From a virus: a DNA stretch of 64,000 nt. The stretch lies in IMG/VR virus record IMGVR_UViG_3300020183_000010. One strand, written 5' to 3'. The notes beneath the pieces are model-generated. The model was not told where the DNA came from, did no database searches, and was given only the letters and a program-made list of their open reading frames with translations. Below are positions 35,113 through 46,879 of the stretch, piece after piece. Position numbers and translations under genes: made by a program. The stretch's first letter is position 1. Each line of letters begins with the position of its first letter.

Positions 35113-35733
35113 CTAAACAGTTTTATAAGCAGGATAGATTTCTAAAAATTCTTCGGGGCTTACTAAATATAGTATTTGATGTCTATTTAAAGTAAAATAA
35201 TCCCATGTAGTAGCTTCACTAGGAAAAACATTCAACGTTTCACTTATACCTCTAGTTAAGATTCCTACTCCCCAATCTGTATCAACAGTTACAAGTTTTA
35301 AATCATTCTTATATAGGCGCAGCTTTATTAATGAAAGATAAACAGTTCCGTTCCAATTTCCGTTTGCAGGAGCAGTAAAAACAGGGCTTTCCGCTGCGTG
35401 GTGTTTAGTAGGGGGATTACAATCATGTAAAACTATAGTACCGTTTTCTGATAGATGTTTTAAAGAATTTTCAATATCTTTATCTACTTGGTGGTCCAGG
35501 TGTAGACCATCAATAAAAATGATATCAAATTTCTGATCCTCTTTTATTCTCTCAAAAAAAGAATCAGACGTCATAACATGTGTTGTGTGAGAAGATACCG
35601 GGGCAGGATCTACACCAATTTTATTTTCACAACAAATTTCTTTAAAGCATTCTCCGTCTCTTACTCCAATTTCAAGATAATTTTTATATCCCTTAGCTTC
35701 GATTATTCTGTTTATTATATCGTATCTAGTCAT
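35113..35733 (-). CDS. Class I SAM-dependent methyltransferase (Methyltransf_24-like)
   Basis: YLEIGV, FDIIFIDGLH, LHDCNP motifs. Confidence 0.85.
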   Translation of the reverse strand: MTRYDIINRIIEAKGYKNYLEIGVRDGECFKEICCENKIGVDPAPVSSHTTHVMTSDSFFERIKEDQKFDIIFIDGLHLDHQVDKDIENSLKHLSENGTIVLHDCNPPTKHHAAESPVFTAPANGNWNGTVYLSLIKLRLYKNDLKLVTVDTDWGVGILTRGISETLNVFPSEATTWDYFTLNRHQILYLVSPEEFLEIYPAYKTV

Positions 35734-35742
35734 AATTATATT

Positions 35743-36453
35743 TTATAAATTCCATTTTTGTTTAAATATAGGGTAAGAACCACTAGTCATATTATACATA
35801 GTTTGTTGGTCTTTAACCACCCTTTCTGTTGTTTTTCCTATGTTCTTATCATGATGAACAACTATAGAATTAGTAACCAATATGTGTCTAATCCTATTTT
35901 TCATTAATTCCATGGAGTAGTCATTATCACAAAACCAATGGTGAAATCTCTCGTCTAAATCTCCTATAATATCATAGATCTCTCTCTTGTGTACTATACA
36001 CCATCCAGATATTTGCTTTCTTATTTCGTATCCTTCAATCAGGCCAACGTTTTCATTTATTCCGTACAGTGACTGTGTCCTAGGACACAAAGGAGAGAAA
36101 GATAAATAATCAGGCACTACAGAAGAAGCTTCTAATATATTAGTAAACCATTTATTTTTAAACTCCAAATCATTGTTACAAAGTGCTACCCAAGGAGAAC
36201 TTCCTTTTTTTCTTCCGAAGTTTAAAAATTTATGATATCCATAAGGAAGTGGAGCCTCGTAAGTAGATACATTTACTGCCATCCAATCCCAATTAACCCC
36301 TGCCTCAGATTCAACAACTATTATATTAAAATCATCTACAGCATTTTCCTCTGAATTAAGCAGGGAGAATATACAATTCTTGGTTAGATCCTTACAGTAA
36401 TCATCTTTAGCATAACTAACTATAACAACGTCTAATATTTTATTATCTCGCAT
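35743..36453 (-). CDS. Glycosyltransferase family 2-like
   Basis: DVVIVSY start, LNFG, CNND, GDLDERF..WFCDND motifs. Confidence 0.8.
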   Translation of the reverse strand: MRDNKILDVVIVSYAKDDYCKDLTKNCIFSLLNSEENAVDDFNIIVVESEAGVNWDWMAVNVSTYEAPLPYGYHKFLNFGRKKGSSPWVALCNNDLEFKNKWFTNILEASSVVPDYLSFSPLCPRTQSLYGINENVGLIEGYEIRKQISGWCIVHKREIYDIIGDLDERFHHWFCDNDYSMELMKNRIRHILVTNSIVVHHDKNIGKTTERVVKDQQTMYNMTSGSYPIFKQKWNL

Positions 36454-37246
36454 CGTAAATTTTTCTAGCTTTTCCTATTATACTTTCTAAATTAGAAAGC
36501 TCTAACATATTTTCGGAATCAGATGGAGAAAGATGCGGATACGGATGTGTTTCTATAAATAATCCGTCAGCATCCATAGCTGCACCGAATCTAACCATGT
36601 CCTCTATTAAATCACTCCTCCCTTCGGTTTTTCCGTGTATTCCATTAGGTCTTTGCAAACTGTGAGTACAGTCCATTATTATTTTAGATCTATTACAAGA
36701 TTTTTTTAATCTAGATATAGAAGTTGCATCAACTATTAAATCATTATAGCCAAAGCTGTTGCCTCTCTCGCCTATCATTAATTCTTTCCCCCCAAACTTA
36801 TAAAACTTATCCTCTATAAATCTACAAGCCTCTGGGGATAAAAACTGTCCTTTTTTAATTAAAACAGAGAGTCCTGTTCTAGCACACTCTTCTATAAGAT
36901 CCGTTTGTCTACAAAGAAAAGAAGGAATCTGTAAATAATCAACCACTTCGGAAACTCTTTCGACTTGAGTGGTTTCATGAACATCCGTTATAATATTAAT
37001 ATTTAATCGTTCCTTTATTTTTCTTAAAACTTCTAATCCTTTTTCTAGACCTATTCCTCTGTATCCCTCAGCCGAGGTTCTGTTAGCTTTATCAAAGCTA
37101 GCCTTAAAGATTGGATAAAAATTATGTAAAAGCCCACACCTCCTAACTTCACTAGCTATCTCAAAACAAGTATCCCAGCTTTGAATAACACAAGGCCCCC
37201 CAATAAGTATTCTAGTTTTTTGATTTACGACCGAGATATCCACCAT
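36443..37246 (-). CDS. kdsA: KDO-8-phosphate synthase
   Basis: GPCVI, FKASFDKANRTS, QIPSFLCRQTDL, KKGQFLSP, ERGNSFGY, DCTHSLQ, GLFIETHP motifs. Confidence 0.95.
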   Translation of the reverse strand: MVDISVVNQKTRILIGGPCVIQSWDTCFEIASEVRRCGLLHNFYPIFKASFDKANRTSAEGYRGIGLEKGLEVLRKIKERLNINIITDVHETTQVERVSEVVDYLQIPSFLCRQTDLIEECARTGLSVLIKKGQFLSPEACRFIEDKFYKFGGKELMIGERGNSFGYNDLIVDATSISRLKKSCNRSKIIMDCTHSLQRPNGIHGKTEGRSDLIEDMVRFGAAMDADGLFIETHPYPHLSPSDSENMLELSNLESIIGKARKIYDAR

Positions 37247-44907: not shown

Positions 44908-45518
44908 GAATCAAATTCATTGCTTCTTTTGATATTTTTTCTTAACACGTCTCTGGTGTAAACGTGTTTGTCTCTAACTCTAGATATCCCGTTACTTATA
45001 ATTTTTCCGTCACTGAAATCATTACTAGTAAAATCTTTATCTTTCATAACGTCTATCCATATTTTACCTCTAAATCTAGGAAGTAAAACATACTTAAGAA
45101 CATCGTGATCGAAATCTATATCATTACTTATTATCTTTTCTAGACAGATATCTTTTAAAGATTCCAAAAACATTAAACTTCTCTCGTTATATTTTATACA
45201 AAGGGGAGATGCTTTTATACCTTGAAGATCCCCAGTGTGACTAGCAAAAAGAATATCAGAATCCCATTTTTTAAATACATCGTGATATTGGGATATTTCA
45301 GTATCAACATCTATCCATATTAAATCCCTTCTTAGGGTAATTAATTTGTCATAAATAAAAGATGGTTTATGTAGGGTGTTCTTCCAATATTCTCTATATC
45401 CTCCTGATTTCTCTATCTCTATCTCTATACCCAATGATTTACACATAAAGTGAAGATTATTTGAACATTTTTCGTAATACGAATCACCAGAATAGAAAGA
45501 TATAAAAATAGGATTCAT
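44880..45518 (-). CDS. GT-A fold glycosyltransferase (DxD), paralogue 2
   Basis: FISFYS..YY, NTLHKPSFI, LIWIDVD, SPL, DHDVL. Confidence 0.7.
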   Translation of the reverse strand: MNPIFISFYSGDSYYEKCSNNLHFMCKSLGIEIEIEKSGGYREYWKNTLHKPSFIYDKLITLRRDLIWIDVDTEISQYHDVFKKWDSDILFASHTGDLQGIKASPLCIKYNERSLMFLESLKDICLEKIISNDIDFDHDVLKYVLLPRFRGKIWIDVMKDKDFTSNDFSDGKIISNGISRVRDKHVYTRDVLRKNIKRSNEFDSCTLKDFSI

Positions 45519-46255
45519 TAATCTATATTCAGTTTATTAAATAATATGTCACATAGGTTTCTATTGCTGGAGTAAGGTCTAGGCAAATGACAATCTATAT
45601 ATTCCCCTACGTTATAGTCAGTTTTAGGCCAAATAGCCTTATCTAATCTACGATCTGCATATTTTTCTTCTATCCAACCTCTTTCAAGATGTCTAATATA
45701 GTATCTGGATTTTCTTAGGGTTTGGTTGTAAAAAAACTTCTGATCTGTGCCACTTCGCATATTCATTCTTTTTAATCTTAGAAGAAAATCTAAATGGCTT
45801 TCTTCATTTAAATCTAACAGATCTGAAAAACTTTTCGGATCACCAGCAAGATAACACATTGGATATTGGGGGTTAGTCCTATACCATCTATATTTAATGA
45901 TATCTGAACTATATGATATTAATCCAGTGTCCCCTATGTACTCAGCGTTATTTATATAATAATCCTTGGAGATAGGAAGCATATCCATATCTGATATGAT
46001 GAATGGTTTATCCAGGAGGTTTGCTGCCCAGAACCTAATACATTGTGCCTGCTGTGCAATGTCCCAATCACTTCTTGCTTCTAGATAAAACACCTTACCG
46101 TGTTCGTAAACCCAAGCAGGAGGTGCCGCATTGTCTATATAAAGAAGAACAGGTTCTAATCCTATTAAATTCTTCCATGCTCTAGCTACATAGGGCCAAA
46201 AATCTAGATATTCTGGGTTTGAGTTAGAGCTAACTACTGCATATTCTAATTTCAT
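45518..46255 (-). CDS. Putative glycosyltransferase (DxD)
   Basis: YLDFWP..AW, ISDMDMLP, YPMCY, TDQ, DCHLPRPY motifs within glycan island. Confidence 0.6.
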   Translation of the reverse strand: MKLEYAVVSSNSNPEYLDFWPYVARAWKNLIGLEPVLLYIDNAAPPAWVYEHGKVFYLEARSDWDIAQQAQCIRFWAANLLDKPFIISDMDMLPISKDYYINNAEYIGDTGLISYSSDIIKYRWYRTNPQYPMCYLAGDPKSFSDLLDLNEESHLDFLLRLKRMNMRSGTDQKFFYNQTLRKSRYYIRHLERGWIEEKYADRRLDKAIWPKTDYNVGEYIDCHLPRPYSSNRNLCDILFNKLNID

Positions 46256-46879
46256 CTATCTTCTTAGTCTGGAATTATAATTTGTATTCAATTTTTTATG
46301 TACATTTCTTGATTCTTGATAATGCTCTATAACGGGGGATGTCCTAGGATACATTATCTTCATATGATCATATATGAAAGTATACTCGGGAGGAAGATTA
46401 TAATATGAAAGATCCGTCATTTCTCTTTGAGCCCTTTGCATATTTTTTTGTTCCCACGTTTCGGGTTTCATTCTTTCTGCGGGGGTTGCCTTGTTTAATT
46501 GTATCCACCTGTCTACAAATCTTTTTACCTTATCGTTGTTCTTTAAAAATAATGTACCTGATAAAGCCTCATCTGACCTCCATTTAAAGTCTTGTGTTCT
46601 ATATGCTATATCGCAATCAAGATTTGGTATAAGATCTGGATATTGTTTAAATTGAGCATCCACATCAACATATAGTACGTCCTGATTTCTTGAATTTAAA
46701 ATATCTCTTATAAAATATGCTTTGTGGTGTGTATTCTTTTCCCATGAACCAAGATCATCAATTGCTTCTATATAATGAGGCAGACTAAAATTGTTTAAAG
46801 ATCTCCTAAGATTTTCAGCTAACACCTCGTATGATGTGCTTTCTGTGTAATATGCTATAACTAAAAACTGGGGGCTCAT
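46256..46879 (-). CDS. GT-A fold glycosyltransferase (DxD), paralogue 3
   Basis: IAYYT..Y, WEKNTHHKAYFI, LYVDVDA, SGTLFL, LPPEY, IEHYQES. Confidence 0.75.
   Translation of the reverse strand: MSPQFLVIAYYTESTSYEVLAENLRRSLNNFSLPHYIEAIDDLGSWEKNTHHKAYFIRDILNSRNQDVLYVDVDAQFKQYPDLIPNLDCDIAYRTQDFKWRSDEALSGTLFLKNNDKVKRFVDRWIQLNKATPAERMKPETWEQKNMQRAQREMTDLSYYNLPPEYTFIYDHMKIMYPRTSPVIEHYQESRNVHKKLNTNYNSRLRR

Follow-up and report, generated by a model that had tools for sequence, protein, structure and literature searches.

An uncultured lake jumbo phage carries, at positions 35113-46879 of the 64-kb window (the whole stretch of DNA that was analysed), a glycan island of about 12 kb with 16 ORFs coding for predicted soluble enzymes. 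The gene content supports its reading as a phage-owned, export-less glycan assembly line with a putatively fucose-containing, methylated and pyruvylated product, in agreement with the initial annotation, which had proposed a multi-sugar glycan built by the phage itself; the genes found would form a self-contained line for it. As judged from the genomes compared, the locus is modular, with conserved ends and a middle exchanged between related phages, an arrangement that is new here. The acceptor is the weakest step: the phage's own virion proteins are suggested tentatively, and sequence alone decides for neither the virion nor the host envelope.

Gene content of the glycan island

The island genes are closely packed and co-oriented, the exception being an inserted pair on the (+) strand. 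The initial annotation had counted 14 contiguous genes; the gene classes it named lie where it had placed them, and the count is corrected to 16 ORFs, which is also the sum of its own list. The kdsD and kdsA, gmd and fcl, GT10, GT2, pyruvyl transferase, four methyltransferase and kinase-like genes are all present, with assignments of varying strength. Curated cut-offs were passed by KdsA, Gmd, the pyruvyl transferase, the GT10-like protein and the methyltransferases at 35113 and 41084 (FkbM). The island and its surroundings contain:

33718..34281, (-) strand: NUDIX hydrolase, conserved left flank (PF00293, 24.5 bits vs cut-off 21.1)
34229..35072, (-) strand: two conserved ORFs (207 aa and 87 aa) in the interval from the NUDIX gene to the island
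35113..35733, (-) strand: SAM methyltransferase (Methyltransf_24), conserved flank (PF13578, 41.7 bits vs 26.3)
35743..36453, (-) strand: GT2-like GT-A glycosyltransferase, conserved flank (phrog_22332; PF00535 in homologues)
36443..37246, (-) strand: KdsA, 3-deoxy-8-phosphooctulonate (Kdo-8-P) synthase (NF003543, 309 bits vs cut-off 242)
37212..37790, (-) strand: SIS-only (no CBS) arabinose-5-phosphate isomerase, KpsF/KdsD type (TIGR00393, 5e-43; 3ETN)
37780..38802, (-) strand: Gmd, GDP-mannose 4,6-dehydratase (TIGR01472, 496.6 bits vs 415, equivalog cut-off passed)
38778..39722, (-) strand: Fcl-like GDP-L-fucose synthase (NF047922)
39723..39801: divergent promoter gap with GAAC-N17-TATAA 32 nt before fcl
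39802..40392, (+) strand: methyltransferase-like gene, weak, first of the inserted pair (PF03602, 22.4 bits, cut-off 24)
40419..41087, (+) strand: atypical kinase, PI4K/CtkA/HipA/Fam20 fold (Atlas lead; AF2 pLDDT 92.9)
41084..41770, (-) strand: FkbM-family methyltransferase (PF05050, 27.1 bits vs 22.7)
41779..42351, (-) strand: methyltransferase-like gene (Methyltransf_24, under the cut-off; PF13578, 20.3 bits vs 26.3)
42354..43202, (-) strand: polysaccharide pyruvyl transferase (PF04230, 61.5 bits vs 25.3)
43202..44047, (-) strand: GT10-like alpha-1,3/4-fucosyltransferase (PF00852, 30.4 vs 23.9)
44044..45518, (-) strand: paralogous pair of DxD GT-A-like transferases (287 aa and 212 aa; BLASTP between them)
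45518..46255, (-) strand: GT-A glycosyltransferase of a virus-only family, conserved right flank (AF2 pLDDT 92.6)
46256..46879, (-) strand: GT-A resembling nucleotide-diphospho-sugar transferases, opening the island operon; conserved right flank (PF03407, 22.7 vs 22)
46880..47016: conserved island leader, GAAAC-N18-TAAAAT, then TTTAC-loop-GTAAATCCC(A/G)GG-TATGAAT

The NF003543 match of KdsA spans residues 3-264 and passes the equivalog cut-off, the protein staying under the stricter cut-offs of TIGR01362 (295 vs 314) and NF009109. In the 192-aa isomerase the TIGR00393 match covers the SIS part (residues 36-189), i.e. the KpsF/GutQ-family domain is present, and the top PDB match is 3ETN from B. 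fragilis (1.2e-53, full length), the match to the E. coli isomerase 2XHZ being 8e-29. The canonical C-terminal CBS pair of KdsD is absent, the sequence stopping after the SIS domain, and the whole-protein family scores are below the cut-offs; arabinose-5-phosphate isomerase activity is plausible from the sequence since single-domain forms exist (3ETN). Fcl matches NF047922 over its full length (E 8e-130) with 432.8 bits, below the cut-off of 500, and its product could be another GDP-6-deoxyhexose. Judged by their families, the isomerase and KdsA would convert ribulose-5-phosphate and PEP to Kdo-8-P, and Gmd and Fcl would convert host GDP-mannose to GDP-L-fucose. The supply of CMP-Kdo would need host KdsC and KdsB, both of which profile searches failed to find in the 64-kb window, as the initial annotation had stated. 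KdsC (TIGR01670) is absent from all five related records and KdsB (PF02348) from three of the five, one of them 85% complete; in the records G004 and G005, the only ones with PF02348, it lies inside the cassette. No recognisable Kdo transferase was found in the window.

The six soluble glycosyltransferases (GTs) comprise a GT2-like enzyme, a GT8/GT6-like GT-A enzyme, three paralogous DxD GT-A enzymes and a GT10-like fucosyltransferase. The GT2 call is based on phrog_22332 ('glycosyltransferase', 1.3e-16) and on 167 homologues, many of which contain PF00535. The GT10-like protein matches 2NZW (H. pylori FucT, 4.3e-9); 2NZW and 5ZOI are matched at 4e-9 over residues 173-233, which hold the C-terminal nucleotide-binding motifs, and the N-terminal acceptor domain is unmatched in this comparison. 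The four DxD transferases of the initial annotation were recovered at 44044, 44880, 45518 and 46256, with the reservation that the first, second and fourth are mutual paralogues (BLASTP identity 32%, 1e-22, for 44044 vs 44880, and 31% to 46256-46879) assigned from weak similarity, their PF03407 match being only borderline. The 45518..46255 model has a GT-A fold with GT8/GT6/GT24 enzymes nearest, PDB matches to LARGE1, UGGT and GT6, viral structural neighbours and invariant D89/D91 of the DxD motif; in the 46256..46879 protein, present in 24 related loci, D72/D74 are invariant. The conserved island GT families are given as 'Viruses 100%' in the Atlas, and a search of 185,579 species genomes for the conserved GT family returned one match, on a MAG contig. 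By these sequence searches the conserved GT-A families are virus-only, without bacterial homologues.

Among the decorating genes, the methyltransferase at 35113..35733 is 67-89% identical in relatives, and those at 39802 and 41779, both below the Pfam cut-offs, were assigned by a weak match plus a SAM motif (DFGASTG and ETGTFHG, respectively). PF04230 is found in all homologues of the pyruvyl transferase among the matches listed. For the kinase-like gene, whose ORF opens at 40323, the probable start is 40419 (M33); its model resembles CtkA, PI4KII-alpha and HipA (VIA Z 13.5, 13.1 and 11.0, respectively; PI4K/CtkA with Foldseek), and D..N and D are invariant among 20 homologues. The (+)-strand pair formed by this gene and the methyltransferase at 39802 is absent from all relatives compared and also from a near relative in run X21, with the joint at 39734>41007. 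Judging by gene content, the six GTs would assemble an oligosaccharide, which would then be capped by the pyruvyl transferase, by as many as four SAM methyltransferases and, less surely, by the atypical kinase.

No membrane helices were predicted in the 16 island products, the hydrophobic 19-mer maximum being below KD 1.5-1.6, and the ORFs of four other cassette variants contain only four borderline single hydrophobic segments. A priming polyprenyl-phosphate transferase, a flippase or ABC exporter, a polymerase and a ligase were likewise not found in the island and these four variants in a Pfam census of the best 25 of 50 families, which extends to all five loci what had been said of the island at first. 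By these searches the island fits neither a Wzx/Wzy- or ABC-dependent O-antigen or capsule locus, multi-pass membrane proteins not being found, nor GtrABC/Oac seroconversion, the island having no integral-membrane GtrA, GtrB or GtrC and no acyltransferase.

Phage ownership, modularity and promoter motifs

The island is authentic phage DNA and a conserved phage locus according to sequence comparison, since its flanks are common to more than 20 IMG/VR jumbo-phage contigs and bridging contigs come from independent runs. The flanks are kept in 18-24 IMG/VR contigs and both borders are bridged by contigs from other lake runs. The NUDIX protein, possibly a GDP-sugar hydrolase, is 66-97% identical in 18 related contigs, and the two ORFs next to it, which gave no match in family searches, are kept in 18 of 18 relatives. 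The island had been placed between baseplate and head modules. On the head side this stands, with the major capsid protein (MCP) and prohead protease genes to the right, separated from the island by a RimK-like ATP-grasp gene and an AsnB-like gene; on the left, the baseplate is represented by a single sub-threshold match to a gp5/VgrG OB domain. Among the relatives compared, the position of the locus within the virion-gene region is fixed.

The conserved ends consist of MT-GT2-KdsA-SIS-Gmd at one side and two GT-A genes at the other. In 23 loci the variable middle measures 5.8-17.5 kb, the spacing from KdsA to the first GT is 9.0-20.3 kb, the proteins form 84 clusters, and no fewer than 12 architectures are seen. 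Cassettes in the relatives include GT11, GT6, GT25, GT2, FkbM, DegT, WbqC and sialyl-type (CST-I/GT29-like) GTs as well as aminotransferases. The conserved ends would hold the precursor and 'core' genes and the swappable middle the tailoring genes, resembling a serotype locus. A single conserved leader, ends that are kept and cassettes that are exchanged together point to one pathway selected for product structure.

A (G/A)AAC-N17/18-TA(T/A)AA motif heads both island operons; across the 64 kb it has just three intergenic occurrences, these two among them. In the relative G001 it lies 24 nt before the RNR-alpha gene and 59 nt before that of a Dda-like helicase, so island transcription appears, by motif, to start from replication-class rather than late promoters. 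The late motif ATATATA precedes head and tail genes; motifs of this type occur on both strands of the gap at 39723..39801, and the late-type TATATATA motif in 46880..47016 was assigned to the divergent gene at 47017. Late promoters shared with virion genes, as virion glycosylation would suggest, were not found at the island heads, which by motif lack ATATATA. In chloroviruses, GTs are known to be expressed early too.

The putative acceptor

If virion proteins are the acceptor, they would receive the glycan in the cytoplasm, ahead of virion assembly or while it proceeds. This reading is the likeliest of those considered, if short of probable, because the conserved GTs are virus-only, the locus is fixed among virion genes and five variants lack export genes; it also has experimental precedents (PMC9614988, PMC7826918 and, as far as related in PMC12619734, Freeman 2023). 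Against it stand the missing Kdo transferase, KdsB and KdsC, the non-late promoter motif and the lack of a mucin-like Ser/Thr acceptor on the MCP or tail proteins in the window, where the only Ser/Thr-rich patch belongs to a 2259-aa fibre, and also the variable-cassette GT families, which are the ones known from LOS/O-antigen mimicry loci of bacteria.

The absence of export genes had been taken to make a cytoplasmic acceptor likelier, a step that does not hold. LOS-type lipid A-core glycans are built at the inner leaflet by soluble or peripheral GTs and leave via the generic host MsbA/Lpt, so a missing flippase does not decide the acceptor; host flippases are also usable for Und-P-linked glycans. 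Remodelling of the host envelope by the phage also fits, though it is somewhat less likely than a virion acceptor: with more Kdo-8-P, host KdsC, KdsB and WaaA would make new lipid A-Kdo on the inner leaflet, to which the phage GTs, methyl- and pyruvyl-transferases would add a new outer core for export by host MsbA/Lpt. As no KdsB, KdsC or Kdo transferase is recognisable in the window, host lipid A is the only established sink of extra Kdo-8-P. The KdsD and KdsA half pathway is kept in 18 of 18 relatives, mostly without KdsB/KdsC, soluble GTs are enough for lipid A-core assembly, and relatives encode LOS-typical GT25 'LPS biosynthesis', GT11, GT6, GT10 and CST-I/GT29-like enzymes. The half pathway, these enzymes and the replication-class motif favour the host LPS route at least equally with a virion coat. 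However, GT families without bacterial homologues would be odd for action on a host LOS core, the locus is fixed within the virion module, and LOS rewriting by soluble GTs of a lytic phage is not known to us from any experiment; the seroconverting phages that are known rely on membrane proteins. Host cell-wall modification is preferred by the authors who described the cyanophage clusters (PMC9602691, PMC12801897).

Improbable in our view is a set of auxiliary metabolic genes that share no common product, sustaining host sugar-nucleotide and LPS pools while the GTs and methyltransferases act on diverse host glycoconjugates, e.g. an Und-P-linked O-glycan or CPS, via host priming enzymes and flippases. 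KdsA relatives on 196 IMG/VR stretches in varied contexts, and the general O-glycosylation system of Bacteroidota, rich in fucose and methylated sugars, would fit this; the tight operon with its single leader, conserved ends and swapped cassettes is the signature of a single pathway. Hypermodification of phage DNA with so complex a glycan is very improbable. Phage GTs can attach as many as a few sugars to hydroxymethylated bases (Pyle 2024, cited in PMC12619734), but the chemistry of Kdo, pyruvyl ketals and multiple O-methylation is that of surface glycans, no known DNA glycan is so elaborate as to need six GTs and capping enzymes, and no base-hydroxymethylase was seen in the window.

Comparison with known systems

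Campylobacter, Haemophilus, Neisseria and Helicobacter possess LOS outer-core or glycan-mimicry loci with soluble GT25, GT8, GT10, GT11 and sialyl-type transferases, which need no dedicated flippase for their action on lipid A-Kdo and differ from strain to strain; these loci lie on the chromosome and have a known acceptor, whereas the conserved GT-A families of the phage have no bacterial homologues. Seroconverting temperate phages (GtrABC, Oac, Wzy-beta) also change a surface glycan with phage genes, but they do so on finished O-antigen in the periplasm with integral-membrane enzymes, which are absent from the island.

Published precedents for viral glycogene clusters come from cyanophages and giant viruses. 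The large, lytic T4-like cyanomyophages S-SCSM1 (PMC9602691), S-SCSM2R (PMC12801897) and P-SSM2 carry 'cell wall synthesis and modification' clusters, whose function was not shown (PMC9602691, PMC12801897). That of S-SCSM1 includes Gmd and Fcl, a Nudix GDP-mannose hydrolase, fucosyltransferases and 5-13 GTs (PMC9602691), and one of the GTs of S-SCSM1 ranks second among the viral structural neighbours of 45518-46255. S-SCSM2R has many GTs and KdsA paired with KdsB (PMC12801897), whereas here KdsA, only 36% identical, accompanies an isomerase without KdsB. The host phylum also differs, being Bacteroidota for this phage, and the layout with conserved ends and a swappable middle and the pyruvyl and kinase genes are undescribed in cyanophages.

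Giant-virus clusters (clade-specific in Mimivirus, the 38-kb Kdo cluster of CroV, and GMD/GMER with A064R and A111/114R in chlorovirus PBCV-1; PMC9614988, PMC7826918, PMC5408694) similarly combine soluble GTs, methyl- and pyruvyl-transferases and sugar-nucleotide enzymes (GDP-fucose; Kdo predicted) and vary by clade. These are eukaryotic viruses, however, sharing folds but no sequence orthology with the island, and CroV and Fadolivirus encode the entire Kdo pathway, phosphatase and cytidylyltransferase included. For chloroviruses and mimiviruses there is proof that the glycans end up on the capsid or fibrils (PMC9614988, PMC7826918, PMC5408694). In mycobacteriophages, as summarised in PMC12619734, capsid and tail-tube proteins are modified in the cytoplasm by phage GTs whose genes adjoin the structural genes, a proximity seen here too (Freeman et al. 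2023, PMC10527164); according to that summary there are one to few GTs, with neither precursor pathways nor capping enzymes, and the sugars go onto Ser/Thr-rich tails at the C terminus, a kind of tail not seen on the MCP of this phage.

Should the host envelope rather than the virion be the target, the surface of the infected cell would be altered, which may, for example, lead to superinfection exclusion, keep progeny from being trapped on debris or help to evade grazers.

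Gene content and phage origin of the island

Of the 16 ORFs in the island at 35113-46879, two (39802-41087) are on the plus strand and the other 14 on the minus strand. Curated models and structural comparison bear out the classes of glycan genes recognized in the initial annotation, although the count of 14 given there has to be raised to 16. The assignments are as follows.

KdsA: NF003543, 309 bits with a cut-off of 242
SIS-only isomerase of the KpsF/KdsD family, 192 aa: curated models
Gmd: TIGR01472, 497 vs 415
Fcl-like reductase: 8e-130, with a score below its own cut-off
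Methyltransf_24 methyltransferase and FkbM methyltransferase: curated models
Polysaccharide pyruvyl transferase: 61.5 bits
GT10-like C-terminal domain: curated model, matching the H. pylori alpha-1,3-fucosyltransferase at 4e-9
35743-36453, minus strand: GT2-like protein, phrog_22332, with homologues carrying PF00535
44044, 44880 and 46256 (genes are named by start coordinate), minus strand: mutually paralogous, DxD invariant, with a single borderline PF03407 match
45518-46255, minus strand: GT-A fold in the AF2 model (pLDDT 92.6), closest to LARGE1, UGGT and GT6/GT8 enzymes; D89/D91 invariant, no family assignment by sequence
39802, plus strand, and 41779, minus strand: methyltransferase calls, both sub-threshold
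40419 (most likely start), plus strand: kinase-like protein, its model (pLDDT 92.9) aligning over the full length with CtkA, PI4KII-alpha, CotH, HipA and Fam20 (Z 13.5-10.2)

Among solved structures, the SIS protein comes closest to 3ETN, a single-domain isomerase of Bacteroides fragilis (1.2e-53, full length). PDB sequence searches with 35743, 45518, 40323, 42354, the GT-A paralogue profile (A3) and the kinase profile (A4) gave no match, and neither did an Rfam search of window positions 33000-49000. A plausible transmembrane helix was found in none of the 16 products, in agreement with the earlier statement that the island encodes no membrane protein. By homology, the locus is predicted to make Kdo-8-P, as well as a GDP-6-deoxyhexose which is most likely GDP-L-fucose. 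Six soluble glycosyltransferases would build a fucose-containing oligosaccharide, which would be capped by O-methylation, by a pyruvate ketal and perhaps by phosphate.

The major capsid protein (MCP) and prohead protease genes are located at 59019-62912. The closest database relatives of the MCP are those of uncultured huge phages, Lak megaphages and phages of Tenacibaculum, Chryseobacterium and Flavobacterium, in line with a Bacteroidota host. A search with KdsA retrieved 196 viral stretches, 18 of which have 8-11 flanking genes in common with the window at 45-97% identity, and a search with the first island gene (46256) retrieved 24 loci. DNA near-identical to the window is present in many lake metagenomes, and contigs of other metagenome runs span the left border (32847-36254), the junction between fcl and the plus-strand genes (37666-39997) and the right border (46039-47642). 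With the flanks kept in more than 20 phage contigs and the borders at 35113 and 46879/47017 bridged in other runs, the island being a mis-assembled host fragment is ruled out, and it is phage-encoded as originally proposed. No near relatives of the island were found by megablast among 50,697 phage records. The lineage may correspond to the published moraphages, with which a Lak-related MCP is compatible and whose core contains four glycosyltransferase families (PMC12619734).

Several other genes of the window were recorded in their own right.

7995-14774, minus strand: 2259-aa fibre with beta-propeller repeats and, near residue 572, a stretch rich in Thr/Ser
19364-20491, minus strand: 375-aa protein matching S1 RNA-binding domains in three stretches (PF00575, 7e-23), amid large tail and fibre genes
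25634-26539, minus strand: gp5/VgrG-OB-like protein with (G-T-S)n repeats at its end
50529-52049, plus strand: RimK-like ATP-grasp ligase with a Zn-protease-like C-terminus
52026-53441, minus strand: glutamine-amidotransferase/asparagine-synthase-like gene
54036-56141, minus strand, in the head-gene region: 701-aa hypervariable protein (30-48% identity among relatives vs 70-94% for its neighbours) with a patch rich in Ser/Thr and weak similarity to metallopeptidases

The RimK-like and asparagine-synthase-like genes, lying between the island and the head genes and retained at 83-94% identity in all four relatives, may form a pair acting in peptide ligation or protein modification.

Conserved ends and a swappable middle

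When the window proteins were mapped onto four long relatives, one conserved end was seen to comprise NUDIX, two ORFs without assigned function, a methyltransferase, GT2, KdsA, SIS, Gmd and, in most cases, Fcl, and the other to comprise the GT-A genes 45518 and 46256 followed by genes running toward the head module. The middle, or cassette, differs, occupying 5.8 kb in the window and 9.5, 10.5, 9.5 and 17.5 kb in the four relatives, and the span from KdsA to 46256 ranges from 9.0 to 20.3 kb in 11 contigs. The 23 loci compared show at least 12 gene orders and 84 protein clusters, 53 of these being confined to one or two loci. Among 57 cassette ORFs, a Pfam census picked up FkbM methyltransferases and GT11, GT2, GT25, GT6 and GT7-like families together with DegT, SDRs, WbqC and UDP-glucose dehydrogenase, and no multi-pass membrane protein was found in the cassette variants checked.

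The cassettes of three related loci, L083, L086 and L091, include GT11 (alpha-1,2-fucosyltransferase) in three variants, one GT6, the family of blood-group A/B-type transferases, and GT10-like enzymes, which together make up a histo-blood-group-like toolkit in phages. The plus-strand pair 39802-41087 (methyltransferase-like and kinase genes) was found in the window only among the 23 loci and is cleanly missing from a close variant in a 2025 freshwater metagenome (joint 39734>41007, with 21 other letters), so it represents a recent two-gene insertion.

KdsB and KdsC are absent from the window, as had been noted at the outset, and CMP-Kdo would therefore have to come from host KdsC and KdsB. The cytidylyltransferase of a relative gave no tblastn match in the window, and no recognisable Kdo transferase is present. 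PF02348 is missing from three of five related records, one of these being 85% complete, and occurs in the five solely within the G004/G005 type of cassette; TIGR01670 was found in none of the five, and ManC-like genes are essentially lacking in related records. The cassette of L091 (G004:C1:13200-32500, 8321-16380) encodes a DHQ-synthase/Fe-ADH-like enzyme, a class-III aminotransferase, a cytidylyltransferase-cupin fusion and CST-I/MptE-like and GT29-like transferases, and may in this way supply the phage's own transferases with a Kdo derivative activated by CMP and perhaps aminated. KdsA is the sole ulosonic-acid synthase identified in that locus.

Promoter motifs and the island leader

An ATATATA-type motif lies 10-25 nt upstream of head and tail gene starts, 16 of its 27 occurrences being within 60 nt of a gene start in a window that is about 96% coding. 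The island leader (46880-46962, minus strand, approximately 80 nt) is strongly conserved across relatives, the first-gene products of which are only 59-88% identical. It follows the pattern GAAAC-N18-TA(A/C/T)AAT, then TTTAC-loop-GTAAATCCC(A/G)GG-TATGAAT, and has the look of promoter or operator elements arranged in tandem. A hairpin in the leader RNA is not supported, as RNAalifold returned 0 pairs and a stem drawn by hand showed no more covariation than shuffles did (162/500).

The second island operon, which arises from the plus-strand insertion, begins 32 nt downstream of GAAC-N17-TATAA, and the motif heading both operons has only three intergenic matches in 64 kb, two being these. In the related record G001 the same motif is located 24 nt upstream of the ribonucleotide reductase large subunit gene and 59 nt upstream of a Dda-like helicase gene; its head genes are marked by ATATATA, and in its island no gene start has ATATATA within 40 nt. 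Judging by these motifs, we infer that the island is expressed with the replication class and not the late class.

Candidate acceptors and relation to known systems

Virion proteins are our tentative choice of acceptor, as the conserved GT-A families are virus-only, the position of the locus is fixed inside the virion region, and all experimentally resolved analogues considered, namely those of chlorovirus, mimivirus (PMC9614988, PMC7826918) and mycobacteriophage (PMC12619734), decorate the particle. A scan for mucin-like Ser/Thr acceptor regions gave one patch only, in the 2259-aa fibre, and none in the MCP, and yielded no candidate acceptor. The initial annotation had argued for a cytoplasmic acceptor from the lack of a flippase, which does not follow, since assembly of lipid A-core takes just soluble glycosyltransferases and the host MsbA/Lpt. 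Host LPS/LOS is a serious, if rather unlikely, alternative, to which the half pathway for Kdo lacking a phage transferase, the LOS-type glycosyltransferase families in the cassettes and the non-late promoter motif also point. A diffuse role as auxiliary metabolic genes is improbable and DNA as the acceptor highly improbable, the balance falling to something else.

Glycogene clusters are already published in phages and giant viruses, so the kind of system is known. In cyanophage S-SCSM1, five glycosyltransferases and three fucosyltransferases accompany Gmd, Fcl and a Nudix GDP-mannose hydrolase (PMC9602691), S-SCSM2R carries KdsA, KdsB and 13 glycosyltransferases (PMC12801897), and a full Kdo pathway is predicted in CroV and Fadolivirus (PMC9614988). 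Mimivirus, like the window island, has methyl- and pyruvyl-transferases, there in clade-specific clusters (PMC9614988, PMC7826918). The island is a further case, from a Lak-related freshwater lineage, in which the modularity resembling that of serotype loci, the promoter class and the design with KdsD and KdsA only are new; its interest is in the architecture and in deciding which acceptor is used. It is possible, if somewhat doubtful, that virions of freshwater Bacteroidota jumbo phages are coated with an LPS-like Kdo/fucose glycan, methylated, pyruvylated and diversified by cassette exchange, forming true viral "glycan serotypes", some with GT11, GT6 and GT10 toolkits of the histo-blood-group type.

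The virus-only conserved GT-A families of 45518 and 46256 are putative enzyme families. A glycan on the virion would mean that tailed phages can, as giant viruses do, make complex bacterial-style glycans of their own with serotype-like variation, with consequences for phage therapy and for how hosts, grazers and immune systems recognize phages. A glycan on the host envelope would mean that a lytic phage has a route to rewrite LPS by soluble enzymes alone. Either way, the layout of conserved ends and a swappable middle offers a defined natural cassette series for relating gene content to glycan structure.
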